Position numbers and translations under genes: made by a program
The notes under the pieces: generated by a model
What the model was told of the DNA's origin: nothing
The model's input: the letters and a program-made list of their open reading frames with translations, nothing else
The model's database searches: none
Assembly (NCBI RefSeq): GCF_044324785.1
Contig: NZ_CP172127.1
DNA: 64,000 nucleotides
Source: Escherichia coli
GTDB taxonomy: Bacteria; Pseudomonadota; Gammaproteobacteria; Enterobacterales; Enterobacteriaceae
Reading direction: 5' to 3' (one strand)
Part shown: piece after piece, positions 11,120-51,276 of the stretch
How the letters are laid out: each line of letters begins with the position of its first letter
How positions within the stretch are numbered: position 1 is the first letter of the stretch

Positions 11120-12441
11120 TGCCCAAACTTGTCACTTGGATGAACAACCAGCGGGTAGGCGAGTTAACGAAGTTAGCCAACGGCGCGCACACCTTTAAGT
11201 ATGCACCGGAGTGGTTAGCCAGCCGTTATGCCAGACCGTTGTCACTTTCGCTGCCATTGCAGAGGGGGAATATCACCTCTGATGCCGTATTTAACTTCTT
11301 CGATAACCTGTTACCCGATAGCCCGATTGTACGTGACCGGATCGTTAAACGCTATCATGCCAAATCCAGACAACCGTTTGATTTATTGTCAGAAATAGGG
11401 CGAGACAGCGTTGGTGCCGTGACGTTAATACCCGAAGACGAAACCGTAACGCATCCGATAATGGCATGGGAAAAGCTTACTGAAGCCAGACTTGAAGAAG
11501 TATTAACGGCTTATAAAGCAGATATCCCGCTAGGCATGATTAGAGAAGAAAATGACTTTCGCATCTCGGTTGCTGGCGCACAGGAGAAGACAGCACTGCT
11601 CAGAATAGGCAATGACTGGTGCATTCCGAAAGGAATAACGCCGACGACGCACATCATTAAATTACCGATTGGCCAAATCAGGCAGCCCAATGCGACGCTC
11701 GATCTCAGCCAAAGCGTTGATAATGAGTATTACTGTCTGCTGCTGGCGAAAGAACTTGGGTTGAATGTTCCGGACGCAGAAATCATTAAAGCGGGAAGGG
11801 TGCGCGCGTTAGCGGTCGAACGTTTTGACAGGCGTTGGAATGCTGAGCGAACGGTTTTACTTCGCTTGCCACAGGAGGATATGTGTCAGACATTCGGTTT
11901 ACCTTCATCGGTGAAATATGAATCAGATGGAGGCCCAGGCATCGCGCGGATCATGGCTTTTTTGATGGGGTCCAGCGAGGCGCTGAAAGATCGCTATGAT
12001 TTTATGAAGTTTCAGGTGTTCCAGTGGTTGATTGGCGCAACGGATGGCCATGCAAAAAACTTCTCCGTATTTATTCAGGCTGGCGGCAGTTATCGACTCA
12101 CGCCATTTTACGACATCATTTCAGCATTTCCGGTATTGGGTGGCGCAGGAATACACATCAGCGATCTCAAACTGGCAATGGGGCTTAACGCATCCAAAGG
12201 CAAAAAAACGGCAATCGATAAAATTTATCCGCGACATTTTCTGGCGACAGCAAAGTTGCTGAAATTTCCGGAAGTGCAGATGCATGAAATCCTGAGTGAC
12301 TTTGCCAGAATGATTCCGGCAGCACTGGATAACGTGAAGACTTCATTACCGACAGATTTTCCGGAGAACGTGGTGACGGCAGTTGAAACCAATGTGTTGA
12401 GGTTGCACCGTCGGTTAAGCCGAGAATACGGTATTAAGTAA
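11119..12441 (+). CDS. hipA: Serine/threonine kinase toxin HipA
   Basis: 440-aa protein MPKLVTWMNNQRVGEL...; ORF opens at 11062 but start is set at the ATG overlapping the hipB stop, as in K-12. Confidence 0.93.
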   Translation: MPKLVTWMNNQRVGELTKLANGAHTFKYAPEWLASRYARPLSLSLPLQRGNITSDAVFNFFDNLLPDSPIVRDRIVKRYHAKSRQPFDLLSEIGRDSVGAVTLIPEDETVTHPIMAWEKLTEARLEEVLTAYKADIPLGMIREENDFRISVAGAQEKTALLRIGNDWCIPKGITPTTHIIKLPIGQIRQPNATLDLSQSVDNEYYCLLLAKELGLNVPDAEIIKAGRVRALAVERFDRRWNAERTVLLRLPQEDMCQTFGLPSSVKYESDGGPGIARIMAFLMGSSEALKDRYDFMKFQVFQWLIGATDGHAKNFSVFIQAGGSYRLTPFYDIISAFPVLGGAGIHISDLKLAMGLNASKGKKTAIDKIYPRHFLATAKLLKFPEVQMHEILSDFARMIPAALDNVKTSLPTDFPENVVTAVETNVLRLHRRLSREYGIK

Positions 12442-12721
12442 GATATGGGGTTTGGTCGTTGTTAATGAGCACGACAATCATGACCGCCAACGACTGGATT
12501 CTTCCTTGGTTTATGTTGGTGCGCATAATGTATATTATGTTAAATGGAGTTTGAGTGATGCGGAGTGATTTTCCGGTCGTCGTTATTACTTCAGGGTTCC
12601 AGAACATAAAGCCTCTCCTCTTTCATAATTGGCCTGTGCATACCGGATATAGCCTGGCTGATATGCAGGTTTGCCGTTTGCCGCATCTTCTCAGCGTTGA
12701 AGAGTCAGGCTGGCAAACCGC

Positions 12722-12976
12722 GTGCAAATGAACCCCCCCTCTTTCCATCAACACTTCAGACAGCTTGCGGGAATGAGTCCACTCCGGTATCAGAAATGGC
12801 TACGCCTCAATGAAGCCAGGCGACTGATGCTGAATGAACATTACGATGTCACCACTGCAGCCTATGCTGTCGGTTACGAAAGCTTATCCCATTTCAGTCG
12901 GGAATATTCGCGGATGTTTGGAGAGTCACCTAAGAGAGATATTACCAGGTTAAGAAAGTCTGTCGGTCAGCTTTAA
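12722..12976 (+). pseudogene. yneL: AraC-family regulator remnant (C-terminal HTH only), yneL-like
   Basis: 84-aa ORF (GTG start) carrying only the second AraC HTH (...SHFSREYSRMFGESPKR...); a short upstream ORF in another frame (about 12546-12731) ends here, so the locus looks like a decayed full-length gene. Confidence 0.7.
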
Positions 12977-13409
12977 TAAACCCTGCACTTATCTGTTTAG
13001 AGCAATTCCGTGTTAGTTACACCAGGCAAACATTAACTATAGCTAATGATTTATAGCCATATAAACCATTAGTCGCTCTTGACCTTTCCTGACACTTCCC
13101 TTGTTCGCAATAATATTCTGTTTAGTCGCTGTTTATAAATATCATGCATAATGAAATCGTCATGTTATTTAGCGACATAAAATGTTTTTGCAAATACTCT
13201 CTACAACAAGTGCTGCAATAAACTTGTTGTGATTAGGTGTCCTTGTAATTTAAAGATATTATCGTTCTTCGTGAAATGTAATAACCCTGGAAACTATATT
13301 CTCAGGGCAACAACCAATTAAGAATGATTCTTGTTTTATAAGCAATAACAGAATGACTTAATTGTTAACTCTCTTTATTCAGCTACTTAAATATAAATTT
13401 TGGAGAATT

Positions 13410-13973
13410 ATGAAACTCAAACATGTCGGTATGATTGTCGTTTCTGTGTTGGCGATGTCGTCTGCTGCGGTAAGCGCAGCCGAGGGTGATGAATCAGTAA
13501 CGACCACTGTTAATGGCGGTGTTATTCATTTTAAAGGTGAAGTGGTAAATGCCGCTTGTGCGATTGATTCAGAATCAATGAACCAAACGGTTGAGCTGGG
13601 TCAGGTCCGTTCTTCTCGTCTGGCTAAAGCGGGTGACCTCAGCTCCGCCGTTGGCTTCAATATCAAGCTGAATGATTGTGATACCAATGTTTCCAGTAAT
13701 GCAGCTGTTGCATTCCTGGGTACTACTGTCACCAGTAATGACGACACATTAGCGCTGCAGAGTTCAGCGGCAGGCTCTGCCCAAAATGTCGGTATTCAAA
13801 TTTTGGACCGTACGGGCGAGGTATTAATACTTGATGGTGCCACTTTCAGCGCTAAAACTGACTTGATTGATGGCACGAATATACTGCCGTTCCAGGCTCG
13901 TTATATTGCTCTCGGGCAGTCAGTAGCTGGTACTGCAAACGCTGATGCGACCTTCAAAGTTCAATATCTATAA
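13410..13973 (+). CDS. F9 (Yde/Fml) fimbrial major subunit, FimA-like
   Basis: 187-aa protein with signal peptide [23 protein letters not shown] and fimbrial subunit C-terminus ...[16 protein letters not shown] upstream; first gene of the chaperone-usher operon. Confidence 0.85.
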
Positions 13974-14326
13974 TTCAATCTTAAGGTGGCTATACGTCAT
14001 CTGAAATTGAAACAGGGTGTGTGTGGCATGGCTACGCACACCCGAGAAATTCACCAATGTTCATCTCATTATTAATGAGGAATAGTTTGTGTTTTGGAGC
14101 GGTATGAAAAAATCACATAATATCTAAACGTTCAATAAACAACAGTAGTTAAACTTACTGTTATTTAGAGTATTTACTTTATAGCAAGGTTTTCCTATTA
14201 AAAGAGAACCAACATTTATTTCAAACGCATTAAGTCTGGAAACCCGGCGACTCGCCAATGTATTAGCAACATTTACCGATTGTCTGATGTAACGGTTTCC
14301 CCGCTTATCCTCTTAACACATGGAGA

Positions 14327-15046
14327 ATGCATCAGATGCAAACTACGCGTACCCCCTACTCTGTTTCCTTTATGGCGACAGTGTTACTTTTATTGGTCTT
14401 TGCTTGCCATAGCACCATTGCCAACGCAGCTGTCGCACTGGGTGCGACGCGGGTAATTTATCCGGCAAACCAGAAACAGGTTTTATTGCCTGTCACGAAT
14501 AATGATCCTGCCAGTGTCTATCTCATTCAGTCATGGATAGAAAATGCAGGTGACCAAAAAGACACCCAGTTTGTCATTACCCCACCGCTTTTTTCCATGC
14601 AAGGTAAAAAAGAGAATACGCTGCGGATAATCAACGCCACTAATCATCAGTTACCAGGCGACCGTGAAAGCCTGTTCTGGGTTAATGTTAAAGCTATTCC
14701 TGCTATGGAAAAAGACCAGAAGAATGAGAATACATTACAGCTGGCAATTATTAGCCGCATAAAAATGTTTTATCGCCCCACGAACCTGGCAATGGCACCT
14801 GAAGAAGCGCCTGCAATGCTTCGGTTTCGTCGCAGCGGCAGCAAACTCACTCTTATTAATCCAACGCCCTACTTCATTACCGTAACAAATATGAAAGCAG
14901 GAAATAGCAATCTCCCAAACACCATGGTGCCGCCAAAAGGTGAAGTATCGGTGGATATCCCGCATGCTGCAACCGGGGATATCAGTTTTCAGACGATCAA
15001 TGATTACGGTGCATTAACTCCGCGTATTAAGGCAACCATGCAGTAA
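14327..15046 (+). CDS. Periplasmic fimbrial chaperone (PapD/FimC family)
   Basis: 239-aa ORF with signal peptide and PapD-like fold features; sits between major subunit and usher; exact start (14327 or a nearby ATG) uncertain. Confidence 0.85.
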   Translation: MHQMQTTRTPYSVSFMATVLLLLVFACHSTIANAAVALGATRVIYPANQKQVLLPVTNNDPASVYLIQSWIENAGDQKDTQFVITPPLFSMQGKKENTLRIINATNHQLPGDRESLFWVNVKAIPAMEKDQKNENTLQLAIISRIKMFYRPTNLAMAPEEAPAMLRFRRSGSKLTLINPTPYFITVTNMKAGNSNLPNTMVPPKGEVSVDIPHAATGDISFQTINDYGALTPRIKATMQ

Positions 15047-15087
15047 GCCAGTGACCTAATTAATAATAAACTCAATCGGAATCAATA

Positions 15088-17739
15088 ATGACATCCTTTC
15101 GTGCCGCATTTAAGGCATATCGTATGCATCAGGTGTTACTACTGCCTCGCTTTGCACGGCTTACCATTGCCCTTGGCTTAGCAACTGCGGTTTTTCCCGT
15201 TGACGCAGAGTATTATTTTAATCCACGGTTTTTAAGCAATGATCTTGCTGAATCTGTCGATTTATCCGCCTTTACTAAGGGACGCGAGGCACCACCTGGT
15301 ACATATCGGGTCGACATTTATTTGAACGACGAATTTATGACTAGTCGGGATATTACTTTTATTGCAGATGATAATAACGCAGATCTCATCCCATGCCTGA
15401 GTACAGATCTTCTTGTCAGTCTTGGCATAAAAAAATCAGCGTTATTAGACAATAAAGAACATTCGGCAGAAAAACATGTGCCGGACAACAGCGCATGCAC
15501 ACCACTTCAGGATCGTTTGGCCGACGCATCAACTGAGTTTGATGTTGGTCAGCAACATCTGTCACTCTCCGTTCCGCAAATTTATGTTGGCAGAATGGCT
15601 CGCGGCTATGTTTCTCCTGATCTGTGGGAAGAAGGAATAAATGCTGGGCTGCTAAACTATAGTTTTAATGGTAATTCTATTAATAATCGTAGTAACCATA
15701 ATGCAGGAAAATCCAACTATGCATATTTGAATTTACAGAGTGGCATCAACATTGGTAGTTGGCGACTGCGCGATAACTCAACGTGGAGTTATAACAGTGG
15801 GAGTAGCAATTCATCTGACAGCAATAAATGGCAGCATATCAATACGTCGGCTGAACGTGACATTATTCCCTTACGCTCACGCTTAACGGTAGGTGATAGT
15901 TATACCGATGGCGATATTTTTGATAGTGTGAACTTTCGTGGCCTCAAAATAAATTCAACAGAAGCGATGTTGCCCGATAGCCAACATGGTTTCGCTCCGG
16001 TGATTCATGGTATTGCCCGCGGCACCGCACAAGTGAGTGTAAAACAGAATGGATACGATGTTTATCAGACTACTGTCCCACCCGGCCCTTTTACTATTGA
16101 TGATATCAACTCTGCGGCCAATGGTGGTGATCTGCAAGTAACCATAAAAGAGGCAGACGGCAGTATTCAGACATTATATGTTCCTTATTCGTCTGTTCCG
16201 GTTCTCCAACGTGCTGGATATACGCGTTATGCGCTTGCCATGGGGGAATATCGTAGTGGAAATAACCTGCAAAGCTCCCCCAAGTTCATACAAGGTAGCT
16301 TGATGCATGGACTGGAAGGAAACTGGACACCTTATGGCGGAATGCAAATTGCAGAAGATTATCAGGCCTTCAACCTTGGTATTGGTAAAGATTTAGGACT
16401 TTTTGGTGCCTTTTCTTTCGATATCACGCAGGCCAATACGACACTTGCAGATGGCACCCGTCACAGCGGGCAATCGATTAAATCCGTCTACAGCAAATCC
16501 TTCTACCAGACGGGAACCAATATCCAGGTCGCAGGATATCGCTATTCTACGCAAGGTTTTTATAACTTATCCGACAGTGCCTACAGTCGAATGAGTGGTT
16601 ACACCGTCAAGCCTCCTACCGGAGACAGCAACGAGCAGACACAATTTATTGATTATTTTAATCTGTTCTACAGTAAGCGTGGTCAGGAACAAATAAGCAT
16701 CTCTCAGCAGCTTGGAAATTACGGTACGACATTTTTCAGTGCCAGTCGCCAAAGTTACTGGAACACGTCACGCAGCGACCAGCAAATATCATTTGGATTA
16801 AATGTGCCGTTTGGTGATATTACGACTTCGCTGAATTACAGCTTTTCCAATAATATATGGCAAAACGATCGGGATCATTTACTTGCTTTTACGCTTAATG
16901 TTCCCTTCAGTCATTGGATGCGTACAGACAGTCAGTCGGCATTTCGTAATTCAAACGCCAGTTACAGTATGTCAAACGATTTGAAAGGCGGCATGACCAA
17001 TCTATCAGGGGTTTATGGCACTCTGCTGCCGGATAATAACCTGAATTATAGCGTTCAGGTAGGTAACACCCACGGAGGTAATACATCGTCTGCCACCAGT
17101 GGTTACAGTTCTCTTAATTATCGTGGAGCTTACGGTAATACGAATGTCGGTTACAGTCGGAGTGGGGACAGCAGCCAGATTTATTACGGAATGAGTGGTG
17201 GGATTATTGCTCATGCTGATGGCATCACCTTTGGTCAGCCGCTGGGCGACACAATGGTTCTGGTTAAGGCTCCTGGCGCTGATAATGTCAAAATAGAGAA
17301 CCAGACCGGTATTCATACCGACTGGCGTGGCTATGCCATATTACCATTTGCGACAGAATATAGAGAAAATCGTGTCGCTCTTAACGCGAATTCCCTTGCA
17401 GATAATGTTGAACTGGATGAAACAGTAGTCACTGTCATCCCAACTCACGGTGCTATTGCCAGAGCAACATTTAATGCACAAATCGGCGGGAAAGTATTAA
17501 TGACGTTGAAGTACGGTAATAAGAGCGTTCCATTCGGTGCAATTGTCACACACGGAGAGAATAAAAATGGCAGCATTGTCGCGGAAAACGGTCAGGTTTA
17601 TCTGACTGGACTTCCACAGTCAGGGAAATTACAGGTTTCATGGGGCAAAGATAAAAACTCAAACTGTATTGTCGAGTACAAGCTTCCTGAAGTTTCTCCT
17701 GGTACCTTACTGAACCAGCAGACAGCAATCTGTCGCTAA
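15088..17739 (+). CDS. ydeT: Fimbrial outer membrane usher (FimD family), full length
   Basis: 883-aa ORF typical of ushers; K-12 ydeT is an N-terminally truncated usher as I recall, here it appears intact. Confidence 0.88.
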   Translation: MTSFRAAFKAYRMHQVLLLPRFARLTIALGLATAVFPVDAEYYFNPRFLSNDLAESVDLSAFTKGREAPPGTYRVDIYLNDEFMTSRDITFIADDNNADLIPCLSTDLLVSLGIKKSALLDNKEHSAEKHVPDNSACTPLQDRLADASTEFDVGQQHLSLSVPQIYVGRMARGYVSPDLWEEGINAGLLNYSFNGNSINNRSNHNAGKSNYAYLNLQSGINIGSWRLRDNSTWSYNSGSSNSSDSNKWQHINTSAERDIIPLRSRLTVGDSYTDGDIFDSVNFRGLKINSTEAMLPDSQHGFAPVIHGIARGTAQVSVKQNGYDVYQTTVPPGPFTIDDINSAANGGDLQVTIKEADGSIQTLYVPYSSVPVLQRAGYTRYALAMGEYRSGNNLQSSPKFIQGSLMHGLEGNWTPYGGMQIAEDYQAFNLGIGKDLGLFGAFSFDITQANTTLADGTRHSGQSIKSVYSKSFYQTGTNIQVAGYRYSTQGFYNLSDSAYSRMSGYTVKPPTGDSNEQTQFIDYFNLFYSKRGQEQISISQQLGNYGTTFFSASRQSYWNTSRSDQQISFGLNVPFGDITTSLNYSFSNNIWQNDRDHLLAFTLNVPFSHWMRTDSQSAFRNSNASYSMSNDLKGGMTNLSGVYGTLLPDNNLNYSVQVGNTHGGNTSSATSGYSSLNYRGAYGNTNVGYSRSGDSSQIYYGMSGGIIAHADGITFGQPLGDTMVLVKAPGADNVKIENQTGIHTDWRGYAILPFATEYRENRVALNANSLADNVELDETVVTVIPTHGAIARATFNAQIGGKVLMTLKYGNKSVPFGAIVTHGENKNGSIVAENGQVYLTGLPQSGKLQVSWGKDKNSNCIVEYKLPEVSPGTLLNQQTAICR

Positions 17740-22639: not shown

Positions 22640-22831
22640 ATGCATGCGACCATAGTGAAAAATAAAATCACGCAAAGAGACAACTATAAAGGGATCATGT
22701 CTGTAATTGTGGTTGTCTTATTACTGACCCTTACGGTGATAGCCATTTTTTCGGCAATTGATCAGCTGGGTATTTCAGAAATGGGTCGCATTGCAAGGGA
22801 TCTTACACATTTCATTATCAATAGTTTGTAA
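22640..22831 (+). CDS. safA: Small membrane protein SafA, PhoQ-activating connector (63 aa here)
   Basis: MHATIVKNKITQRDNYK... with single transmembrane segment; ORF opens at 22604; C-terminus two residues shorter than K-12 SafA as I recall it. Confidence 0.85.
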   Translation: MHATIVKNKITQRDNYKGIMSVIVVVLLLTLTVIAIFSAIDQLGISEMGRIARDLTHFIINSL

Positions 22832-22911
22832 GACTGAAAATAAACAGCAAATTATAAATATGAAATGTTAAAAAAGTATCGATAAAAACTTTATTGTTTT
22901 AAGGAGATAAA

Positions 22912-23673
22912 ATGTCGCTCGTTTGTTCTGTTATATTTATTCATCATGCCTTCAACGCTAACATTTTAGATAAAGATTACGCCTTCTCAGACGGCGAGAT
23001 CCTGATGGTAGATAACGCTGTTCGTACGCATTTTGAACCTTATGAGCGGCATTTCAAAGAAATCGGATTTAATGAAAATACCATTAAAAAATATCTACAA
23101 TGCACTAACATCCAGACAGTGACGGTGCCTGTTCCTGCGAAGTTTTTACGTGCTTCAAATGTACCGACTGGATTGCTTAATGAAATGATTGCTTATCTCA
23201 ACTCGGAAGAACGCAATCATCATAATTTTTCAGAACTTTTGCTTTTTTCTTGCCTGTCTATTTTTGCCGCATGCAAAGGTTTCATTACACTATTAACTAA
23301 CGGTGTGCTATCCGTTTCCGGGAAAGTGAGAAATATTGTCAACATGAAGCTGGCGTACCCATGGAAGCTGAAAGATATTTGTGACTGCCTGTACATTAGT
23401 GAAAGCCTGTTGAAGAAAAAACTTAAGCAAGAGCAAACGACATTCTCACAGATTCTTTTAGATGCCAGAATGCAGCACGCAAAAAATTTGATACGCGTAG
23501 AAGGTTCAGTCAATAAAATTGCCGAACAATGTGGTTATGCCAGTACATCTTATTTTATTTATGCGTTCCGCAAACATTTCGGCAACAGTCCGAAGAGAGT
23601 TTCTAAGGAGTACCGTTGTCAAAGGCACACCGGTATGAACACGGACAACACGATGAGTGCTTTAGCTATTTGA
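22912..23673 (+). CDS. ydeO: AraC-family acid-resistance regulator YdeO
   Basis: 253-aa ORF with C-terminal AraC HTH (...YASTSYFIYAFRKHFGNSP...); downstream of safA. Confidence 0.92.
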   Translation: MSLVCSVIFIHHAFNANILDKDYAFSDGEILMVDNAVRTHFEPYERHFKEIGFNENTIKKYLQCTNIQTVTVPVPAKFLRASNVPTGLLNEMIAYLNSEERNHHNFSELLLFSCLSIFAACKGFITLLTNGVLSVSGKVRNIVNMKLAYPWKLKDICDCLYISESLLKKKLKQEQTTFSQILLDARMQHAKNLIRVEGSVNKIAEQCGYASTSYFIYAFRKHFGNSPKRVSKEYRCQRHTGMNTDNTMSALAI

Positions 23674-24074
23674 TTATTTGCTAACGAGTAGTCAACCACA
23701 CACGCTACGTAAGAATTAAATGGGGCAGCCATTTCCTGCCCCGCGTTGTTTTTAGGCGATATATTTATTGAAATAAATAAGTGACACTCATCACATATTT
23801 ATGCATTTGCATAACCTGTTGCATAATTATTTATGATCTTAATTCGGAATTTTGTCAGTAAAATACAATAATTTATTAAATATCAATAGATTAGTTGTTT
23901 ATCTGCGAGAAATTACTTAGTAGAATAGAAAGTAATGTCAACAGTTTATGGACTGTTATTTCTCTTTTTTTAGCTAAATCTGCTATCTCTTTATGTGACT
24001 AACTTCACTTACATCCACTTATTTCTCTTCGTAAAATTACTTTGGAATTAAGTACAATAAGAAGAGGAACATTT

Positions 24075-25757
24075 ATGAAGTCTGCATTAAAGAAAAGTGT
24101 CGTAAGTACCTCGATATCTTTGATACTGGCATCTGGTATGGCTGCATTTGCTGCTCATGCGGCAGATGATGTAAAGCTGAAAGCAACCAAAACAAACGTC
24201 GCTTTCTCAGACTTTACGCCGACTGAATACAGTACCAAAGGAAAGCCAAATATTATCGTACTGACCATGGATGATCTTGGTTATGGACAACTTCCTTTTG
24301 ATAAGGGATCTTTTGACCCAAAAACAATGGAAAATCGTGAAGTTGTCGATACCTACAAAATAGGGATAGATAAAGCCATTGAAGCTGCGCAAAAATCAAC
24401 GCCGACGCTCCTTTCATTAATGGATGAAGGCGTACGTTTTACTAACGGCTATGTGGCGCACGGTGTTTCCGGCCCCTCCCGCGCCGCAATAATGACCGGT
24501 CGAGCGCCCGCCCGCTTTGGTGTCTATTCCAATACCGATGCTCAGGATGGTATTCCGCTAACAGAAACTTTCCTGCCTGAATTATTCCAGAATCATGGTT
24601 ATTACACTGCAGCAGTAGGTAAATGGCACTTGTCAAAAATCAGTAATGTGCCGGTACCGGAAGATAAACAAACGCGTGACTATCATGACAACTTCACCAC
24701 ATTTTCTGCGGAAGAATGGCAACCGCAAAACCGTGGCTTTGATTACTTTATGGGATTCCACGCTGCAGGAACGGCATATTACAACTCCCCTTCACTGTTC
24801 AAAAATCGTGAACGCGTCCCCGCAAAAGGTTATATCAGCGATCAGTTAACCGATGAGGCAATTGGCGTTGTTGATCGTGCCAAAACACTTGACCAGCCTT
24901 TTATGCTTTACCTGGCTTATAATGCTCCGCACCTGCCAAATGATAATCCTGCACCGGAGCAATATCAGAAGCAATTTAATACTGGTAGTCAAACAGCAGA
25001 TAACTACTACGCTTCCGTTTATTCTGTTGATCAGGGTGTAAAACGCATTCTCGAACAACTGAAGAAAAACGGACAGTATGACAATACTATTATTCTCTTT
25101 ACCTCCGATAATGGTGCGGTTATCGATGGTCCTCTGCCGCTGAACGGGGCGCAAAAAGGCTATAAGAGTCAGACCTATCCTGGCGGTACTCACACCCCAA
25201 TGTTTATGTGGTGGAAAGGAAAACTTCAACCCGGTAATTATGACAAGCTGATATCCGCAATGGATTTCTACCCGACAGCTCTTGATGCAGCCGATATCAG
25301 CATTCCAAAAGACCTTAAGCTGGATGGCGTTTCCTTGCTGCCCTGGTTGCAAGATAAGAAACAAGGTGAGCCACATAAAAATCTGACCTGGATAACCTCT
25401 TATTCTCACTGGTTTGATGAGGAAAATATTCCCTTCTGGGATAATTACCACAAATTTGTCCGCCATCAGTCAGACGATTACCCGCATAACCCCAACACCG
25501 AAGATTTAAGCCAATTCTCTTATACGGTGAGAAATAACGATTATTCGCTAGTCTATACAGTAGAAAACAATCAGTTAGGTCTATACAAACTGACGGATCT
25601 ACAGCAAAAAGATAACCTTGCCGCCGCCAATCCGCAGGTCGTTAAAGAGATGCAAGGCGTGGTAAGAGAGTTTATCGACAGCAGCCAACCACCGCTTAGC
25701 GAGGTAAATCAGGAGAAGTTTAACAATATCAAGAAAGCACTAAGCGAAGCGAAATAA
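24075..25757 (+). CDS. ydeN: Putative sulfatase YdeN (alkaline-phosphatase superfamily), secreted
   Basis: 560-aa protein MKSALKKSVV... with signal peptide and sulfatase signature region; ORF opens 11 codons upstream at 24042. Confidence 0.9.
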   Translation: MKSALKKSVVSTSISLILASGMAAFAAHAADDVKLKATKTNVAFSDFTPTEYSTKGKPNIIVLTMDDLGYGQLPFDKGSFDPKTMENREVVDTYKIGIDKAIEAAQKSTPTLLSLMDEGVRFTNGYVAHGVSGPSRAAIMTGRAPARFGVYSNTDAQDGIPLTETFLPELFQNHGYYTAAVGKWHLSKISNVPVPEDKQTRDYHDNFTTFSAEEWQPQNRGFDYFMGFHAAGTAYYNSPSLFKNRERVPAKGYISDQLTDEAIGVVDRAKTLDQPFMLYLAYNAPHLPNDNPAPEQYQKQFNTGSQTADNYYASVYSVDQGVKRILEQLKKNGQYDNTIILFTSDNGAVIDGPLPLNGAQKGYKSQTYPGGTHTPMFMWWKGKLQPGNYDKLISAMDFYPTALDAADISIPKDLKLDGVSLLPWLQDKKQGEPHKNLTWITSYSHWFDEENIPFWDNYHKFVRHQSDDYPHNPNTEDLSQFSYTVRNNDYSLVYTVENNQLGLYKLTDLQQKDNLAAANPQVVKEMQGVVREFIDSSQPPLSEVNQEKFNNIKKALSEAK

Positions 25758-25808
25758 CTAAACCTTCATGCGGCGGATTTTTCCGCCGCCTTATTGAGCG
25801 AGATAGCG

Positions 25809-26966
25809 ATGCACGTTACAGCCAAGCCCTCCAGTTTTCAATGTAATCTCAAATGTGATTACTGTTTTTACCTTGAAAAAGAGTCGCAGTTTACTCATGA
25901 AAAATGGATGGATGACAGCACTCTGAAAGAGTTCATCAAACAATATATCGCAGCGTCTGGCAATCAGGTCTATTTTACCTGGCAAGGGGGTGAACCCACT
26001 CTGGCTGGCCTGGATTTTTTCCGTAAAGTTATTCACTATCAACAACGCTATGCAGGCCAAAAACGTATTTTTAATGCATTACAAACGAATGGCATTTTAT
26101 TGAGTAATGAATGGTGTGCCTTTCTCAAAGAACATGAGTTTCTGGTTGGTATCTCGATCGATGGCCCCCAGGAGCTACATGACCGTTACAGACGCAGTAA
26201 TTCAGGTAACGGTACTTTTGCAAAAGTGATAGCAGCCATCGAGCGTCTGAAATCATATCAAGTAGAGTTTAATACGTTAACCGTCATTAATAACGTTAAT
26301 GTCCATTACCCTCTTGAGGTTTATCATTTTTTAAAATCTATCGGCAGTAAACATATGCAATTTATCGAATTGCTCGAAACCGGGACGCCGAATATTGATT
26401 TCAGTGGTCATAGTGAGAACACATTCCGTATCATTGATTTTTCTGTGCCTCCTACGGCTTATGGCAAGTTTATGTCGACCATTTTTATGCAATGGGTTAA
26501 AAACGATGTGGGTGAAATTTTCATCCGTCAGTTTGAAAGCTTTGTCAGCCGTTTTTTGGGGAATGGGCATACCAGTTGTATTTTCCAGGAGTCCTGCAAG
26601 GATAATCTGGTTGTTGAAAGTAATGGAGACATTTACGAATGCGACCATTTTGTCTATCCACAGTACAAAATTGGAAACATTAATAAATCTGAACTCAAAA
26701 CGATGAACAGTGTTCAACTGACAGCGCAAAAAAAACGGATTTCAGCGAAATGTCAGCAATGTGCATATAAACCTATCTGCAATGGCGGTTGTCCTAAGCA
26801 TCGTATTACTAAAGTAAACAATGAGACTGTTTCCTATTTTTGCGAAGGTTATAAAATCCTTTTTTCAACCATGGTACCTTATATGAACGCCATGGTGGAG
26901 TTAGCTAAGAACAGAGTACCGCTTTACCACATTATGGATGTTGCAAAACAAATGGAGAATAATTAA
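25809..26966 (+). CDS. ydeM: Radical-SAM anaerobic sulfatase-maturating enzyme homolog YdeM
   Basis: CNLKCDYC radical-SAM cluster motif near the N-terminus plus C-terminal Cys-rich SPASM-like region; partner of ydeN; ORF opens at 25794. Confidence 0.9.
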
Positions 26967-27256
26967 TAACGCTCCCCCTTAGTTCCATTCTTAGCCTCCT
27001 TCTTATGACCTTAACAAGGCACCCGACATAAATTCCTGTCGGGTGTTTCGTCATCATCATCTTCCCTTGCGAAAATCCTGGCATACGTGGTATTCGTCAG
27101 GGCATTAGCAATACCCTTGATTATCAATAGCATAACCATAACCACTGAAAATTAAATATTTCTTTATATTTCATATTGTTAAATGATACTTAAATAAATT
27201 TCATCAGTAAATCATTGCCATAGATAATCATTGGATGGCACAATCAATTTTCGCTA

Positions 27257-28942
27257 ATGATAACCATTCCCATTACATTTCGTATGTTGATAGCAAAGTA
27301 TCTCTGTCTGCTGAAGCCCTTTTGGCTGCGTAAGAATAATAAAACTTCAGTGCTGTTAATCATTATTATCCTCGCCATGATCCTTGGCGTTGTTAAAATT
27401 CAGGTCTGGTTAAACGACTGGAATAATGATTTTTTCAATGCGCTAAGCCAGAAAGAAACCGATAAGCTTTGGCAGCTTGTTCTTTGGTTCCCTGCCCTGC
27501 TGGGGATCTTTGTATTAATATCCGTAAACAAAACATGGTTAATTAAACTACTGACTATTCGCTGGCGCGAATGGTTAACAGATTACTACCTTAATCGCTG
27601 GTTTGCAGATAAAAACTACTACTTCACGCAAATCTACGGCGAGCATAAAAATACAGATAACCCTGACCAACGTATCGCTGAGGACATTCTCTTACTGATC
27701 AGTAAAACGCTCAACCTTTCATTTGGCTTCATCCAGTCGCTTAGCATGCTGATCACCTTTACCGTTATTCTTTGGCAAAGCGCGGGTACGCTCTCATTCA
27801 CTGTTGGTGGAACAGAATGGAATATCCAGGGGTATATGGTCTATACCGTCGTGCTCATTGTGATCGGTGGAACTTTATTTACTCATAAGGTTGGTAAACG
27901 TATTCGTCCGCTTAATGTGGAAAAACAACGTAGCGAAGCGACATTTCGAACTAATCTTGTGCAGCATAATAAGCAGGCTGAACTGATTGCGCTAAGCAAT
28001 GCTGAGTCTCTACAACGCCAGGAGTTGAGCGACAATTTTCATACCATTAAAGAGAACTGGCATCGTTTAATGAATCGTCAGCGGTGGCTTGATTACTGGC
28101 AGAATATTTATTCGCGCTCGCTTAGCGTTCTTCCCTACTTTCTGTTATTGCCGCAGTTTATTAGCGGACAGATCAATCTGGGCGGACTGATGAAATCGCG
28201 CCAGGCATTTATGCTGGTATCGAACAATTTAAGCTGGTTTATTTATAAATATGATGAACTTGCTGAACTGGCTGCGGTTATCGATCGCTTGTATGAGTTC
28301 CATCAACTCACCGAACAGCGCCCTACGAATAAGCCTAAAAATTGCCAACATGCGGTACAAGTGGCTGACGCGAGTATTCGTACTCCTGATAATAAGATCA
28401 TATTAGAGAACCTAAACTTTCATGTTTCGCCAGGCAAATGGCTATTACTGAAAGGTTACTCTGGTGCGGGAAAAACCACACTGCTTAAAACATTATCCCA
28501 CTGCTGGCCGTGGTTTAAAGGTGATATTTCTTCTCCTGCTGACAGTTGGTATGTGTCACAAACACCGTTAATCAAAAGCGGCTTACTGAAAGAGATTATT
28601 TGTAAAGCACTTCCCCTGCCTGTAGACGATAAATCGTTGAGCGAAGTACTGCATCAGGTTGGTCTGGGGAAATTGGCTGCGCGTATTCATGACCACGATC
28701 GCTGGGGCGATATTCTTTCCAGCGGCGAAAAACAACGTATCGCCCTGGCACGATTAATTTTACGACGTCCGAAATGGATATTTCTTGACGAAACTACCTC
28801 TCATCTTGAGGAACAAGAGGCTATCCGCTTACTGCGTTTAGTGCGTGAAAAACTACCCACAAGCGGCGTCATTATGGTTACACATCAACCCGGTGTCTGG
28901 AACCTGGCTGATGATATTTGTGACATTAGCGCGGTTTTATAA
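27257..28942 (+). CDS. yddA: Fused permease/ATPase ABC transporter YddA (SbmA/BacA-like membrane domain)
   Basis: 561-aa ORF; Walker A GYSGAGKTT and signature LSSGEKQR in the C-terminal half. Confidence 0.92.
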   Translation: MITIPITFRMLIAKYLCLLKPFWLRKNNKTSVLLIIIILAMILGVVKIQVWLNDWNNDFFNALSQKETDKLWQLVLWFPALLGIFVLISVNKTWLIKLLTIRWREWLTDYYLNRWFADKNYYFTQIYGEHKNTDNPDQRIAEDILLLISKTLNLSFGFIQSLSMLITFTVILWQSAGTLSFTVGGTEWNIQGYMVYTVVLIVIGGTLFTHKVGKRIRPLNVEKQRSEATFRTNLVQHNKQAELIALSNAESLQRQELSDNFHTIKENWHRLMNRQRWLDYWQNIYSRSLSVLPYFLLLPQFISGQINLGGLMKSRQAFMLVSNNLSWFIYKYDELAELAAVIDRLYEFHQLTEQRPTNKPKNCQHAVQVADASIRTPDNKIILENLNFHVSPGKWLLLKGYSGAGKTTLLKTLSHCWPWFKGDISSPADSWYVSQTPLIKSGLLKEIICKALPLPVDDKSLSEVLHQVGLGKLAARIHDHDRWGDILSSGEKQRIALARLILRRPKWIFLDETTSHLEEQEAIRLLRLVREKLPTSGVIMVTHQPGVWNLADDICDISAVL

Positions 28943-28979
28943 AAACAATAAAAGCCCTGCTGTACGGAGATATAAATAA

Positions 28980-31352
28980 ATGAAGCGAGTTCTTATTCCT
29001 GGCGTCATTTTATGTGGCGCTGATGTGGCGCAGGCCGTCGATGACAAAAACATGTACATGCATGTTTTTGAAGAGATGACGGTCTATGCTCCTGTCCCTG
29101 TACCCGTAAACGGCAACACGCATTACACCAGTGAAAGCATCGAGCGTTTACCGACCGGGAATGGCAATATCAGCGATCTGCTGAGAACCAACCCTGCGGT
29201 ACGTATGGATTCAACGCAAAGTACCTCGTTGAACCAGGGAGATATTCGCCCTGAGAAAATCTCTATTCACGGTGCGTCGCCCTACCAGAATGCCTATTTG
29301 ATTGACGGTATTAGTGCAACTAATAACCTGAACCCAGCGAATGAGTCCGATGCCAGTAGTGCAACCAATATTAGCGGGATGTCACAGGGGTATTATCTTG
29401 ATGTCAGCTTACTGGACAATGTGACGCTTTATGACAGTTTTGTGCCGGTTGAATTCGGTCGCTTCAATGGCGGGGTAATTGATGCAAAGATCAAACGCTT
29501 CAATGCTGATGATAGCAGCGTGAAACTGGGTTATCGCACTACGCGTTCGGACTGGTTAACATCGCATATCGATGAGAATAACAAGAGCGCATTTAATCAA
29601 GGTTCTTCAGGAAGTACTTATTACTCTCCAGATTTTAAAAAGAACTTTTATACTTTGTCATTTAATCAGGAACTCGCTGATAACTTCGGCGTTACCGCCG
29701 GTTTATCGCGCCGCCAGTCTGATATCACCCGCGCGGATTATGTTTCGAATGACGGCATTGTCGCCGGTCGGGCACAGTATAAAAACGTTATCGATACTGC
29801 ATTGAGCAAATTTACCTGGTTTGCCAGCGACCGCTTTACCCACGATTTAACCTTAAAATATACCGGCTCCAGTCGTGATTATAATACCAGCACCTTCCCG
29901 GAGTCTGATCGCGAAATGGGTAATAAATCCTATGGTCTGGCATAGGATATGGATACCCAGCTCGCATGGGCCAAACTGCGTACCACCGTTGGTTGGGATC
30001 ATATTAGTGATTATACCCGTCACGATCATGACATCTGGTACACCGAACTTTCATGTACATATGGTGATATTTCAGGGCGTTGCACCCGTGGCGGATTAGG
30101 ACACATTTCCCAGGCTGTAGATAATTACACCTTCAAAACACGCCTGGACTGGCAAAAATTCGCCGTGGGTGATGTTTCGCATCAACCCTACTTCGGCGCG
30201 GAATACATCTATTCCGATGCATGGACTGAACGCCATAACCAGTCTGAATCCTATGTGATTAATGCTGCCGGAAAGAAAACTAACCATACCATTTACCATA
30301 AAGGTAAAGGCAGCCTGGGAATTGACAACTACACGCTGTATATGGCGGATCGCATTAGCTGGCGGAATGTGTCGTTAATGCCCGGCGTGCGGTATGACTA
30401 TGACAACTATCTGTCAAACCACAATATCTCCCCGCGCTTTATGACGGAATGGGATATTTTTGCTGATCAAACCTCAATGATTACCGCCGGTTATAACCGT
30501 TACTATGGCGGGAATATTCTTGATATGGGATTACGTGACATCCGCAATAGCTGGACGGAATCGGTATCAGGCAATAAAACCCTGACGCGTTATCAGGATT
30601 TGAAAACACCTTATAACGATGAACTGGCAATGGGATTGCAGCAAAAAATCGGTAAGAACGTTATTGCGCGCGCAAACTATGTTTACCGTGAAGCGCATGA
30701 TCAAATCAGCAAAAGCAGTCGTACCGACAGCGCGACTAAAACCACCATTACTGAATATAACAACGATGGCAAAACCAAAACGCATTCGTTTAACCTCAGT
30801 TTTGAACTGGCCGAACCCCTGCATATCCGCCAGGTAGATATTAACCCACAAATTGTCTTTAGCTATATCAAGAGCAAGGGCAACTTGTCGTTAAACAATG
30901 GTTATGAGGAGAGCAATACCGGTGATAACCAGGTGGTTTATAACGGTAATCTGGTCTCTTACGATAGCGTTCCAGTGGCAGATTTTAATAACCCATTAAA
31001 GATCTCCTTAAACATGGATTTCACGCATCAACCGAGCGGGTTGGTGTGGGCGAATACGCTGGCCTGGCAAGAAGCGCGTAAAGCTCGCATTATCCTCGGT
31101 AAGACGAATGCGCAATACATCAGCGAATATTCAGATTACAAGCAGTATGTTGACGAAAAACTGGATAGCAGCCTGACCTGGGACACCCGCTTGTCCTGGA
31201 CGCCACAATTTCTGAAACAACAAAACCTGACGATCAGTGCCGATATTCTCAATGTACTGGATAGCAAAACCGCGGTTGATACAACGAATACCGGTGTGGC
31301 GACCTACGCCAGTGGCCGTACTTTTTGGCTTGATGTCAGCATGAAATTTTAA
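28980..31352 (+). pseudogene. yddB: TonB-dependent-receptor-like outer membrane protein YddB interrupted by an in-frame amber codon (TAG at 29943-29945)
   Basis: Two same-frame ORFs (28980-29945, 321 aa; 29949-31352, 467 aa) separated only by TAG; 321+1+1+467 = 790 codons, the length I recall for K-12 YddB; C-terminal ...FWLDVSMKF is a typical beta-barrel terminus. Confidence 0.8.
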
Positions 31353-31396
31353 TAGTTCGGATTTTACTTAACCGGGTAAATTCGCCCGGTTTTCGC

Positions 31397-34192
31397 ATGG
31401 AGATAATTATGAGAAACCTCTGTTTCTTACTGACGTTAGTGGCAACTCTGTTGCTCCCCGGGCGACTGATTGCCGCCGCCTTACCGCAGGATGAAAAGTT
31501 AATTACCGGGCAACTGGACAATGGCTTGCGATATATGATTTATCCGCATGCTCAACCAAAGGATCAGGTAAATTTATGGCTGCAAATTCATACCGGTTCA
31601 TTGCAGGAAGAGGACAATGAGCGCGGCGTGGCTCATTTTGTAGAACATATGATGTTTAACGGCACAAAAACATGGCCGGGTAATAAAGTCATCGAAACAT
31701 TTGAGTCGATGGGTCTGCGCTTTGGTCGCGATGTTAATGCCTATACCAGCTATGACGAAACGGTGTATCAGGTAAGTTTGCCGACTACGCAGAAACAAAA
31801 TCTGCAACAAGTGATGGCAATATTCAGTGAATGGGGTAATGCCGCAACCTTTGATAAACTCGAAGTAGACGCTGAACGCGGCGTAATTACTGAGGAATGG
31901 CGTGCCCATCAGGATGTGAAATGGCGCACCTCTCAGGCGCGCCGCCCTTTCCTGCTGGCAAATACCCGTAATTTAGACCGTGAACCTATCGGCCTGATGG
32001 ATACTGTCGCCACTGTCACACCGGCACAATTGCGCCAATTTTATCAACGCTGGTATCAACCAAATAATATGACCTTTATCGTGGTCGGCGATATTGACAG
32101 TAAAGAAGCGCTGGCGCTGATTAAGGATAATTTAAGTAAGCTTCCGGCTAACAAAGCCGCTGAAAATCGCGTCTGGCCGACAAAAGCAGAAAACCACCTG
32201 CGCTTTAATATCATTAATGATAAAGAAAACCGGGTGAACGGCATCGCTCTCTATTATCGTCTGCCAATGGTACAAGTGAACGATGAGCAAAGCTTTATCG
32301 AACAAGCTGAATGGAGCATGTTGGTTCAGCTGTTCAATCAGCGTCTGCAGGAACGCATACAGTCGGGCGAGTTGAAGACTATTTCTGGCGGCACTGCGCG
32401 CAGCGTTAAAATTGCATCCGATTATCAGTCGCTGTTTTTCCGTGTAAATGCACGAGACGATAATATGCAGGATGCTGCGAATGCATTAATGGCAGAGTTG
32501 GCAACTATTGATCAGCATGGTTTTTCTGCTGAAGAACTCGATGATGTCAAATCTACCCGCCTCACCTGGCTGAAAAATGCGGTTGATCAGCAAGCTGAAC
32601 GTGATTTACGTATGCTGACCAGTCGCCTGGCATCCAGCTCATTAAATAATACGCCGTTCTTGTCGCCGGAAGAGACATATCAACTTTCGAAACGTCTGTG
32701 GCAGCAAATTACCGTGCAAAGTCTGGCGGAAAAATGGCAGCAGTTAAGAAAGAACCAGGATGCATTTTGGGAGCAAATGGTAAACAATGAGGTTGCTGCC
32801 AAAAAAGCATTGTCTCCTGCGGCTATCCTGGCGCTGGAAAAAGAGTACGCCAACAAAAAGCTGGCGGCTTACATCTTCCCAGGCAGAAATTTATCGTTAA
32901 CAGTAGACGCTGACCCACAGGCGGAAATTAGCAGCAAAGAAACGCTGGCTGAGAATCTGACATCATTAACACTTTCCAATGGTGCCAGGGTTATTCTGGC
33001 AAAATCCGCGGGTGAAGAGCAAAAGCTACAAATTACTGCCGTATCTAATAAAGGCGATTTAAGTTTCCCTGCGCAGCAAAAATCACTTATCGCGCTGGCA
33101 AATAAAGCAGTAAGCGGAAGCGGCGTTGGTGAACTCTCCTCTTCCAGCCTGAAACGCTGGAGTGCGGAAAACTCGGTAACCATGAGCAGTAAAGTCAGTG
33201 GCATGAATACATTGCTCTCTGTTAGCGCGCGGACTAATAACCCTGAACCTGGTTTCCAGTTGATTAACCAGCGAATCACTCACAGCACGATTAATGATAA
33301 TATTTGGGCATCGCTACAAAATGCTCAAATTCAGGCGTTGAAAACGCTCGACCAGCGTCCAGCGGAGAAATTCGCCCAGCAGATTTATGAGACGCGCTAT
33401 GCTGATGACCGCACGAAATTACTGCAAGAAAATCAGATTGCACAGTTTACTGCCGCAGATGCGCTGGCTGCCGATCGCCAGTTGTTTTCATCTCCAGCGG
33501 ATATCACGTTTGTCATTGTCGGTGATGTCGCAGAAGACAAACTTCTTCCGTTAATTACGCGTTACTTAGGATCAATCAAACACTCTGATTCGCCATTAGC
33601 CGCAGGTAAACCATTAACTCGCGCGACGGACAATGCATCGGTTACGGTAAAAGAACAAAATGAACCTGTGGCACAGGTTTCACAGTGGAAGCGTTATGAT
33701 TCCCGGACACCTGTAAATCTGGAGACGCGTATGGCGCTCGATGCTTTTAACGTCGCACTGGCAAAAGATCTACGCGTTAATATTCGTGAACAGGCATCTG
33801 GAGCATACAGCGTTTCTTCTCGCCTCTCGGTTGATCCTCAGGCCAAAGATATCAGTCATTTGCTGGCTTTTACTTGTCAACCAGAACGACATGATGAACT
33901 GTTAACGTTAGCGAATGAAGTGATGGTTAAGCGTCTGGCTAAAGGGATCAGTGAGCAAGAACTGAATGAATACCAGCAAAACGTTCAGCGCAGCCTCGAT
34001 ATCCAACAGCGTAGCGTTCAACAATTAGCGAACACCATTGTAAATAGTCTTATTCAATATGACGATCCTGCAGCATGGACTGAGCAGGAGCAATTGTTGA
34101 AACAAATGACGGTAGAGAATGTTAACACTGCCGTTAAACAATATCTTTCTCATCCGGTAAATACTTATACCGGAGTATTATTGCCAAAATAA
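31397..34192 (+). CDS. pqqL: Periplasmic M16-family zinc protease PqqL
   Basis: 931-aa ORF with signal peptide and inverted zinc-binding motif HFVEH...E; last gene of yddA-yddB-pqqL. Confidence 0.92.
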   Translation: MEIIMRNLCFLLTLVATLLLPGRLIAAALPQDEKLITGQLDNGLRYMIYPHAQPKDQVNLWLQIHTGSLQEEDNERGVAHFVEHMMFNGTKTWPGNKVIETFESMGLRFGRDVNAYTSYDETVYQVSLPTTQKQNLQQVMAIFSEWGNAATFDKLEVDAERGVITEEWRAHQDVKWRTSQARRPFLLANTRNLDREPIGLMDTVATVTPAQLRQFYQRWYQPNNMTFIVVGDIDSKEALALIKDNLSKLPANKAAENRVWPTKAENHLRFNIINDKENRVNGIALYYRLPMVQVNDEQSFIEQAEWSMLVQLFNQRLQERIQSGELKTISGGTARSVKIASDYQSLFFRVNARDDNMQDAANALMAELATIDQHGFSAEELDDVKSTRLTWLKNAVDQQAERDLRMLTSRLASSSLNNTPFLSPEETYQLSKRLWQQITVQSLAEKWQQLRKNQDAFWEQMVNNEVAAKKALSPAAILALEKEYANKKLAAYIFPGRNLSLTVDADPQAEISSKETLAENLTSLTLSNGARVILAKSAGEEQKLQITAVSNKGDLSFPAQQKSLIALANKAVSGSGVGELSSSSLKRWSAENSVTMSSKVSGMNTLLSVSARTNNPEPGFQLINQRITHSTINDNIWASLQNAQIQALKTLDQRPAEKFAQQIYETRYADDRTKLLQENQIAQFTAADALAADRQLFSSPADITFVIVGDVAEDKLLPLITRYLGSIKHSDSPLAAGKPLTRATDNASVTVKEQNEPVAQVSQWKRYDSRTPVNLETRMALDAFNVALAKDLRVNIREQASGAYSVSSRLSVDPQAKDISHLLAFTCQPERHDELLTLANEVMVKRLAKGISEQELNEYQQNVQRSLDIQQRSVQQLANTIVNSLIQYDDPAAWTEQEQLLKQMTVENVNTAVKQYLSHPVNTYTGVLLPK

Positions 34193-34454
34193 TAACAGCC
34201 TCGTCAACACATCGTTGGCGGGGATTTTATCAATATTCGCTATTTTTATGTAATAATTTTATAAATACGTTCAAAATAATAACCAAGTACTAATAGTGAT
34301 ATTTTAAGGTCTGATTTTTACGTGATAATTCAGGAGGCGTAGAAAGTGCATAAAAATAACAACATAAAACACCTTGCCACCACCCAAGAATTCAATAATA
34401 TATTGATTTTCAATGATAAAATATTATTCACATAATATCTCACGATAAATAACA

Positions 34455-39469: not shown

Positions 39470-40852
39470 ATGGAGATGTATTTTAAAAGAATGAAAGATG
39501 AGTGGACCGGGCTTGTCGAACAAGCAGATCCGCTCATTCGTGCTAAAGCCGCGGAAATTGCCGTTGCGCATGCCCATTATCTGAGTATTGAGTTTTACCG
39601 AATTGTCCGTATCGACCCGCATGCCGAAGAATTCTTGAGTAATGAACAAGTTGAGCGGCAGTTGAAAAGTGCGATGGAACGCTGGATTATTAACGTGCTT
39701 TCTGCCCAGGTTGACGATGTCGAAAGGCTAATACAAATCCAGCATACCGTTGCGGAAGTGCATGCCCGCATAGGAATTCCGGTAGAAATTGTCGAGATGG
39801 GGTTTCGGGTGCTGAAAAAAATCCTCTATCCAGTCATCTTCTCTTCGGATTATTCCGCCGCAGAAAAACTTCAGGTCTACCATTTCTCGATTAACAGTAT
39901 TGATATCGCGATGGAAGTGATGACTCGCGCGTTTACCTTTAGTGACAGTAGTGCCTCAAAGGAAGATGAAAACTATCGTATCTTCTCGTTACTGGAAAAC
40001 GCCGAAGAAGAAAAAGAACGGCAAATAGCCTCAATACTTTCATGGGAAATAGATATTATCTATAAAGTCCTGCTGGATTCTGATTTAGGCAGTAGTTTGC
40101 CTTTAAGCCAGGCTGATTTTGGCCTGTGGTTTAACCATAAAGGTCGACATTATTTTAGCGGCATAGCCGAAGTGGGCCATATCTCCCGTCTGATTCAGGA
40201 TTTCGACGGTATTTTCAATCAAACCATGCGTAATACCAGGAATTTGAATAACAGAAGTTTGCGGGTGAAATTTTTATTACAGATAAGAAATACCGTATCG
40301 CAAATTATTACCTTGCTGCGTGAATTGTTTGAAGAAGTATCGCGCCACGAAGTCGGTATGGATGTCCTGACGAAATTACTTAACCGCCGTTTCCTACCGA
40401 CGATCTTCAAACGCGAAATTGCCCATGCCAACCGGACCGGTACACCGCTGTCAGTGCTGATTATTGACGTTGATAAATTCAAAGAGATCAACGATACGTG
40501 GGGCCATAACACTGGCGATGAAATTCTGCGTAAAGTCTCTCAGGCCTTTTATGACAACGTCCGCAGTAGTGATTATGTTTTCCGCTACGGGGGCGATGAA
40601 TTTATCATTGTTTTGACTGAAGCTTCGGAAAACGAAACGTTACGTACCGCAGAACGTATTCGCAGTCGGGTGGAGAAAACCAAACTGAAAGCCGCAAACG
40701 GCGAAGATATTGCCCTCTCACTTTCCATCGGTGCCGCCATGTTTAATGGTCATCCTGACTATGAGCGCCTCATTCAAATAGCCGATGAAGCTCTGTATAT
40801 CGCCAAAAGACGAGGTAGAAACCGTGTTGAACTCTGGAAAGCCAGTCTTTAG
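39470..40852 (+). CDS. dosC: Globin-coupled diguanylate cyclase DosC
   Basis: 460-aa ORF, N-terminal globin sensor and C-terminal GGDEF domain (RYGGDEF); stop abuts the next ORF. Confidence 0.93.
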   Translation: MEMYFKRMKDEWTGLVEQADPLIRAKAAEIAVAHAHYLSIEFYRIVRIDPHAEEFLSNEQVERQLKSAMERWIINVLSAQVDDVERLIQIQHTVAEVHARIGIPVEIVEMGFRVLKKILYPVIFSSDYSAAEKLQVYHFSINSIDIAMEVMTRAFTFSDSSASKEDENYRIFSLLENAEEEKERQIASILSWEIDIIYKVLLDSDLGSSLPLSQADFGLWFNHKGRHYFSGIAEVGHISRLIQDFDGIFNQTMRNTRNLNNRSLRVKFLLQIRNTVSQIITLLRELFEEVSRHEVGMDVLTKLLNRRFLPTIFKREIAHANRTGTPLSVLIIDVDKFKEINDTWGHNTGDEILRKVSQAFYDNVRSSDYVFRYGGDEFIIVLTEASENETLRTAERIRSRVEKTKLKAANGEDIALSLSIGAAMFNGHPDYERLIQIADEALYIAKRRGRNRVELWKASL

Positions 40853-49534: not shown

Positions 49535-50425
49535 TTATGCGTCATAGGTTTTTTTTAACGTTTCCATCAACGCCTGCGCCGCAGTAGAAAGCTTATGGTG
49601 TGACGAACGCAGTACGCCTACTCGTCGCTCAATCACTGGATTATCCAGTTCCAGACACACTGCGCCCAGTTCGCTCATCTGCCTGCGGCACAGCGCAGGC
49701 ACAGCGCTTCCTCCCAAACCGTTTGCCACCAGCCGCCCAACCGTAACCAGTTGATGGCTTTCCAGCGCCACTTCCAGTTGCGTTCCACTTTGTGCCAACT
49801 GCTCCTCCAGCATCAACCTGACGGCTGACGGTCGCTGGAGGGTGATAAAATCGAGCGTCAGCAAATCCCGCCAACTCACGCGTTGCCGATTTGCCAGTCG
49901 TGAATCGGCTGGAACAATAGCGACAAACCGATCCACGCCCAGTGGGGTAAAATGCACATGGCCGCAATAGTCAGGTTCAAAGGCAATACCCATCTCCACA
50001 CGCCCTTCGCTCACCATTTCGATCACCTGCTCATTCACCACATCGTGCACGGTGACATTAATCCCTGAATAACAATCGCGGAAGGTTTTCAGCACCGGAG
50101 GCAGAACGTTGGCTGCAAATGACGGCATCGCTGCCACCGAGACTTTGCCCCGCCTGAGCGTGAATCGCTGACGCATGGCCTCCTCAGTGTTATCCCAGTC
50201 AGCCAGCAAAGGCCGTGCCATCGACAATAGCGTTTCCCCCTCCTGGGTTAATGTCACTTTTCGCGTAGTACGCAGCAGTAAAGCGCCCCCTAAGGCATCT
50301 TCCAGTCCTTTAATGGCAAGACTTAGCGCAGGCTGCGACATATTCAGCCGTTCACTGGCATGGGCAAAGTTCAGAGTGTGAGCTACCGCTAAAAACGCGC
50401 GTAACTGTTTGATGCTCATTTTCAT
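49535..50425 (-). CDS. LysR-family transcriptional regulator, divergent from the catabolic operon
   Basis: 296-aa ORF with N-terminal LysR HTH (...LNMSQPALSLAIKGLE...) and substrate-binding domain; 141-bp AT-rich divergent intergenic region. Confidence 0.85.
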   Translation of the reverse strand: MKMSIKQLRAFLAVAHTLNFAHASERLNMSQPALSLAIKGLEDALGGALLLRTTRKVTLTQEGETLLSMARPLLADWDNTEEAMRQRFTLRRGKVSVAAMPSFAANVLPPVLKTFRDCYSGINVTVHDVVNEQVIEMVSEGRVEMGIAFEPDYCGHVHFTPLGVDRFVAIVPADSRLANRQRVSWRDLLTLDFITLQRPSAVRLMLEEQLAQSGTQLEVALESHQLVTVGRLVANGLGGSAVPALCRRQMSELGAVCLELDNPVIERRVGVLRSSHHKLSTAAQALMETLKKTYDA

Positions 50426-50566
50426 CTGGCACTCCGTTAACCTACTGAATACATTTAATTAACATTATATTGATAAATAATACAAATGAATGAGTCACAA
50501 ATTTAAAATTAACAAATCATTTTTTGCCCTTAATGATGTTGAAAAGGACAACTGGAGGGCAACTGT
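50426..50566. promoter_or_regulatory. Divergent promoter / operator region between the LysR gene and the CoA-transferase operon
   Basis: AT-rich 141-bp spacer with several T-N11-A-type dyads (e.g. around TTAATTAACATTA); layout typical of LysR-controlled operons; inferred. Confidence 0.4.
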
Positions 50567-51274: not shown

Positions 51275-51276
51275 CC

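Follow-up and report, generated by a model that had tools for sequence, protein, structure and literature searches.

The closest described counterpart of the locus analysed here is yddB of Escherichia coli K-12 (b1495; PDB 6OFR), which is the same gene at the same locus (ydeM-yddA-yddB-pqqL-gadB) and comprises 790 codons. Its product is a 22-strand beta-barrel with an N-terminal plug (PMC6793856). A distant homologue of YddB is FusA (PDB 4ZGV), the ferredoxin receptor of Pectobacterium (E = 2e-80 over the N-terminal part), which shows 24% sequence identity to YddB and has the same fold (PMC6793856). The Fus uptake system and yddA-yddB-pqqL share an operon logic in which a transporter is combined with an M16 protease and an ABC transporter. 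In strain CFT073 yddA, yddB and pqqL are co-transcribed as one mRNA, are derepressed in a fur mutant and contribute to fitness in systemic infection (PMC3855560); operon deletion mutants grow normally in vitro (PMC6793856, PMC3855560). YddB is the TonB-dependent transporter of a Fur-regulated, protease-associated import system related to ferredoxin uptake in Pectobacterium; E. coli can do without this importer in the laboratory and frequently loses it.

Here we describe an interrupted yddB in a stretch of 64,000 nucleotides from E. coli contig NZ_CP172127.1 (assembly GCF_044324785.1), referred to below as the window. The YddB protein of the window is ~99% identical to the solved structure, but unlike the K-12 gene it has TAG instead of TGG at codon 322, which limits the product to its first 321 residues, and it is likewise truncated in comparison with FusA. 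The best explanation, which we consider highly probable, is a recent, lineage-private nonsense mutation (W322*) that has made yddB a pseudogene and would entail the loss of the importer. W322* is an ordinary lineage-private pseudogene and, for a gene already characterised, an event of a known type. Other natural knock-outs of yddB or pqqL in E. coli have the same outcome, i.e. importer loss, whereas in the window a nonsense point mutation of independent origin, at another site, is responsible. A search of the literature on yddB as a pseudogene found nothing relevant.

Table 1. Features of the yddA-yddB-pqqL region of the window, and the sister loci as compared with the window at position 29944
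Feature	Position	Strand	Remarks
Promoter-like site upstream of yddA	27215..27244	+	Consensus match, weak
yddA	27257..28942	+	ABC transporter ATP-binding protein/permease; first gene of the operon, intact; exact protein widespread in E. coli assemblies
yddB frame	28980-31352	+	790 codons plus terminal TAA; sole internal stop at codon 322 (single-frame translation)
yddB 5' part	28980..29945	+	321-codon ORF plus TAG
Premature amber TAG, yddB codon 322	29943..29945	+	Mutated base 29944: A here, G in all relatives
yddB 3' remainder	29946..31352	+	Codons 323-790 plus TAA
pqqL	31409..34192	+	M16 metallopeptidase; last gene of the operon, intact, downstream of the nonsense codon
Terminator-like hairpin just after pqqL stop	34199..34223	+	Consensus match
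L009-L013, L025	29944		G; sole difference from the window over 7.4-10.8 kb
L014, L026, L027, L030	29944		G; one or two further changes relative to the window
L031	29944		G; one other substitution and an IS1 junction relative to the window

Genomic context and the yddA-yddB-pqqL operon

The surrounding 24 kb are syntenic with E. coli (ydeP, safA, ydeO, ydeN, ydeM, yddA, yddB, pqqL, gadB, gadC, digH, dosC), and the features of the operon are collected in Table 1. A consensus scan of the region yielded promoter-like sites in numbers at chance level, not above shuffle expectation; it revealed no convincing promoter or terminator within the operon, the sole matches being located before yddA and after pqqL. 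The published Fur box of CFT073, GGGAATGGTTATCATTAG, is absent upstream of yddA at up to three mismatches. Expression of the intact pqqL may drop through polarity, with about 1.4 kb of untranslated message ahead of it. The strain should be without YddB/PqqL import, which in systemic infection is a fitness factor for uropathogenic E. coli (PMC3855560), and we suggest that yddB be marked as a pseudogene in this isolate.

A premature amber codon in yddB

Both the sequence and its translation in a single frame confirm what the first-pass annotation of this DNA had claimed, namely that an in-frame TAG lies within yddB. That annotation had also described the two resulting ORFs as parted by the TAG and nothing else, which is correct for the ancestral frame but not for the ORFs as called by the ORF finder: the second of these (29949..31352, 467 aa) is in the same frame as the first and begins at Met324 (ATG 29949), so that Asp323 also intervenes and the codons add up as 321 + 1 (TAG) + 1 (GAT, Asp323) + 467 = 790. 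The sum agrees with the length that had been given for K-12 YddB, and yddB in the K-12-like strain g62, where it is flanked by yddA and pqqL just as in the window, is indeed 2373 nt long, corresponding to 790 codons. More than 4,600 of the 5,426 complete RefSeq genomes of E. coli carry the gene under the annotation "TonB-dependent receptor plug domain-containing protein", and since the stop is a single difference from an otherwise conserved and annotated gene, the split is not a chance pattern of ORFs.

Codon 322 is TGG in g62, in strain N3 and in 11 sister loci (by locus, we saw TGG in L001, L009-L014 and L025-L031). The sister loci were picked by exact protein identity either to PqqL (L009-L014, n = 6) or to YddA (L025-L027, L030 and L031, n = 5) and come from near-identical draft E. 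coli assemblies, all 11 of which have TGG while matching the window over 7.4-10.8 kb. The comparison with K-12 yddB, made through the K-12-like g62, identifies Trp322 (TGG) as the ancestral codon. A single substitution of TGG to TAG, as had been proposed, is borne out by these relatives, in six of which position 29944 is the sole difference from the window. The survey was extended to complete RefSeq E. coli genomes with the 44-mer 29913-29956: none of the 3,314 genomes that match it has A at 29944, and each differs from it by exactly one mismatch. Since all 11 sister loci have TGG, the G-to-A change arose after the divergence of the window from its near-identical relatives. Deamination at a Dcm hotspot was considered as the origin of the change and rejected, as there is no CCWGG at the site.

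Relative to g62, yddB of the window carries 40 nucleotide differences, 29 of which are synonymous. Comparison with three other alleles gives dN/dS values of 0.06-0.09 overall and of 0.05-0.11 for each half of the gene. As these values are low in both halves, yddB was under constraint until very recently, and neither half shows the changes expected of an old pseudogene. The suggestion that yddB is a recent pseudogene is further upheld by the existence of intact, near-identical relatives and by the confinement of the lesion to a few assemblies.

Domains of the truncated protein and its predicted fate

Pfam places the Plug domain (PF07715) at residues 48-162 (nt 29121-29465, E = 1.3e-6), and the precomputed Pfam match for the 321-aa product is also Plug. 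The segment EEMTVYA (residues 31-37), found near the N-terminus by inspection alone, resembles a TonB box, and the 321-aa product probably possesses a signal peptide. In intact YddB from a sister locus, residues 30-790 match the crystal structure of YddB (6OFR; 1731 bits), with FusA (4ZGV) as the next match. Mapped onto this architecture, the stop does not separate a plug half from a barrel half, as the first-pass annotation had it: the plug is indeed in the first half, but it ends at residue 162 and the break falls inside the barrel. For the same reason the truncated product is not devoid of the barrel; it loses about three quarters of it and keeps roughly the first 150 barrel residues. The 321-aa product thus includes, besides the plug, about one quarter of the barrel and ends in ...SYGLA; it lacks the aromatic C-terminal end ...SMKF, which is encoded solely at the end of the downstream ORF. 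With the frame cut at codon 322, no single polypeptide contains the complete 22-strand barrel. The 467-codon part specifies the rest of the 22 strands and has no signal peptide of its own.

Outer-membrane proteins need their C-terminal end for assembly, and the truncated YddB should be non-functional. We propose the following course of events. Within one E. coli clone, a single and very recent G-to-A transition at 29944 has changed Trp322 (TGG) to an amber codon in a sub-lineage of very small size. Translation would stop after residue 321 and release a secreted fragment, which in the absence of the remaining strands and of the C-terminal end should fail to insert into the membrane and would probably be degraded in the periplasm. 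The 467-codon part would be of no use even after a restart at Met324, as its product would have no signal peptide and would stay in the cytoplasm. The net effect would be the loss of the YddB importer.

Alternative explanations

A sequencing error had been offered as one alternative, in which yddB would be intact, with G as the actual base at 29944. What we observe, namely an A that is the sole difference from several sister loci over up to 10.8 kb, is also what a lone base-calling error would produce. However, 29944 lies outside any homopolymer or repeat, and exact-sequence look-ups found both the 321-aa and the 467-aa products in Logan read assemblies. Contig SRR31073010_183 contains both ORFs and shows 0 differences from the window over 14,740 bases, the TAG included. 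Since this contig stops at window position 34688 and the window continues past its end, the two are separate assemblies. The exact 467-aa product occurs on three Logan contigs of different recorded sizes (the longest of 65,777 bases, the SRR31073010 contig of 65,276 and a third in the 20-50 kb class), so that two further contigs carry the second half. W322* appears to be reproduced across assemblies, if we assume that the isolates behind the Logan runs are independent. With the same A recovered in another assembly, an artefact at 29944 is unlikely, and we attach very little probability to an intact yddB hidden by an error.

If the stop is real, the full-length protein could still be made in sufficient amount by an amber suppressor tRNA or by context-dependent read-through, or the two ORFs could be translated separately, with reinitiation at ATG 29949, to give two parts that form a functional transporter. 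E. coli does tolerate amber suppressors, e.g. supE44 in K-12 laboratory strains, and as the 64-kb window holds no tRNA genes, a suppressor could sit elsewhere in the genome. On the other hand, suppressors are rare in natural isolates and basal read-through of UAG is very low, TAG terminates lsrK (3099-4691), dosC (39470-40852) and ddpF (ends at 49498) in the same window, and the closest relatives encode the Trp by a plain TGG, so that there is no long-standing arrangement for read-through; we regard such a rescue as most improbable. All three of these genes do end in TAG, as the first-pass annotation had stated in arguing that the genome is not amber-recoded, and among the 41 main ORFs the stop codons are TAA in 27, TGA in 10 and TAG in 4, counting the internal stop of yddB; amber recoding is excluded. 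As for a split but functional gene, the ATG lies 3 nt after the stop, which makes termination-reinitiation conceivable, and in other TonB-dependent transporters plug and barrel expressed apart reportedly complement each other. In yddB, however, the break at codon 322 is not at the boundary between plug and barrel, the plug being complete by about residue 162, the second ORF lacks a signal peptide, and the sole Shine-Dalgarno-like motif, AGGA, is only 1 nt from the ATG and is probably too close to serve as a ribosome-binding site. Moreover, a single mutation created the split, which none of the relatives shares, and the probability that it is functional is practically negligible. We retain the recent nonsense mutation W322* as the explanation of the interrupted frame.

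The look-up of the 321-aa product returned six more matches in Logan (L003-L008), which we rejected as carriers of the mutation. They represent another, synonymously diverged allele with 13-15 differences in yddB. Each of these contigs runs out at 29942-29944, which truncates the gene call, and G is the base in both contigs that extend as far as 29944. These apparent carriers are a selection artefact of exact-length matching of calls truncated at contig ends. We note as a general pitfall that an exact look-up of a truncated product also returns intact genes that are cut by a contig end within the same codon. Another 321-aa protein, SQM98158.1, was likewise rejected as an instance of the same truncation, as it stems from an IS1 inserted close to codon 316 in a different lineage.

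Loss of the importer in other E. coli strains

About 785 of the 5,426 complete genomes (about 15%) have no match to yddB. Of 40 matching records sampled at even intervals, two have yddB disrupted by insertion sequences: OSUCMP42NDM (IS3) and D97-1 (IS1 in both yddA and yddB). Strain 510016 also has an IS1 in yddB. By accession, the records of other lineages with independent insertions of IS1 or IS3 in yddB are GCA_900479225.1 (L016), NZ_CM161509.1 (L018), NZ_CP087578.1 (L032) and NZ_CP025851.1 (L033). The insertion in GCA_900479225.1 is an IS1 near codon 316, which by coincidence also leads to a 321-aa product.

Further lesions are found in pqqL among the relatives that retain TGG in yddB. In L027 and L030 (GCA_023803095.1 and GCA_053151395.1) codon 480 of pqqL is changed from TAC to TAG (Y480*; window positions 32846-32848, changed base 32848). 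Y480* is thus a further amber knock-out of this operon within the clone, independent of W322*. Locus L031 (Logan contig SRR31140625_45, common to 5 samples) follows the window almost without change as far as 32614 and then continues with GGTAATGACTCCAACTTATTGATAGTG; as this sequence past ~32614/32615 is an IS1 end, L031 represents an insertion of IS1 into pqqL in the same clone. All seven point differences observed within the clone in the region 22757-33442 are nonsynonymous or nonsense, which is typical of very recent variation.

FusA is used as a receptor by pectocins, and it is tempting to ask whether yddB W322*, pqqL Y480* and the IS1 insertion in pqqL, together with the IS insertions elsewhere, reflect positive selection for loss of the importer, for instance if YddB served as a receptor for a phage or a protein bacteriocin. 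We consider this rather unlikely; the repeated loss could also be due to neutral decay. The data from the clone do not allow us to claim selected loss, because too few relatives were compared and the nonsense mutation itself was the route by which they were found. If the loss were selected, it might hint at the substrate of YddB or at something that exploits YddB.

The clone and other features of the window

Many draft assemblies and Logan contigs are 99.98-100% identical to the window, whereas none of the complete RefSeq genomes of E. coli is closer than 98.0% (positions 1-13000) or 98.9% (positions 18000-42000). With near-identical drafts and complete genomes at 98.9% or less, the clone is well sampled in the form of drafts and absent from the set of complete genomes. 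Shigella or a synthetic recoded genome was considered as the source of the window and rejected: the differences from g62/K-12 represent ordinary, mostly synonymous drift with no codon-specific pattern, the region compared contains no insertion sequence, and draft E. coli assemblies at 99.98% identity are numerous.

Between ddpF and osmC we found an island of seven genes (49535-56300) that strain N3 lacks. It specifies a LysR regulator, subunits A and B of a 3-oxoacid CoA-transferase, an acetyl-CoA acetyltransferase, a 3-hydroxyacyl-CoA dehydrogenase, a 463-aa protein without an NCBIfam hit and a 3-hydroxybutyrate dehydrogenase, and it looks like a cluster for the utilisation of 3-hydroxybutyrate and acetoacetate.

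A 2.8-kb segment of the ydeT-like fimbrial usher region (13700-16512) is deleted in the sister loci L020, L021 and L024 and present in L022; in the window the usher ORF (15088-17739, 883 aa) is intact. Exact look-ups with the ORF-finder starts of dosP and of an autotransporter gene, and with the annotated start of dosP, gave no match. This autotransporter, located between lsrK and hipB (5222-10642), is an intact protein of the ECSE_1600 family, and its exact 1806-aa sequence appears in 404 blocks of the collection of assemblies.
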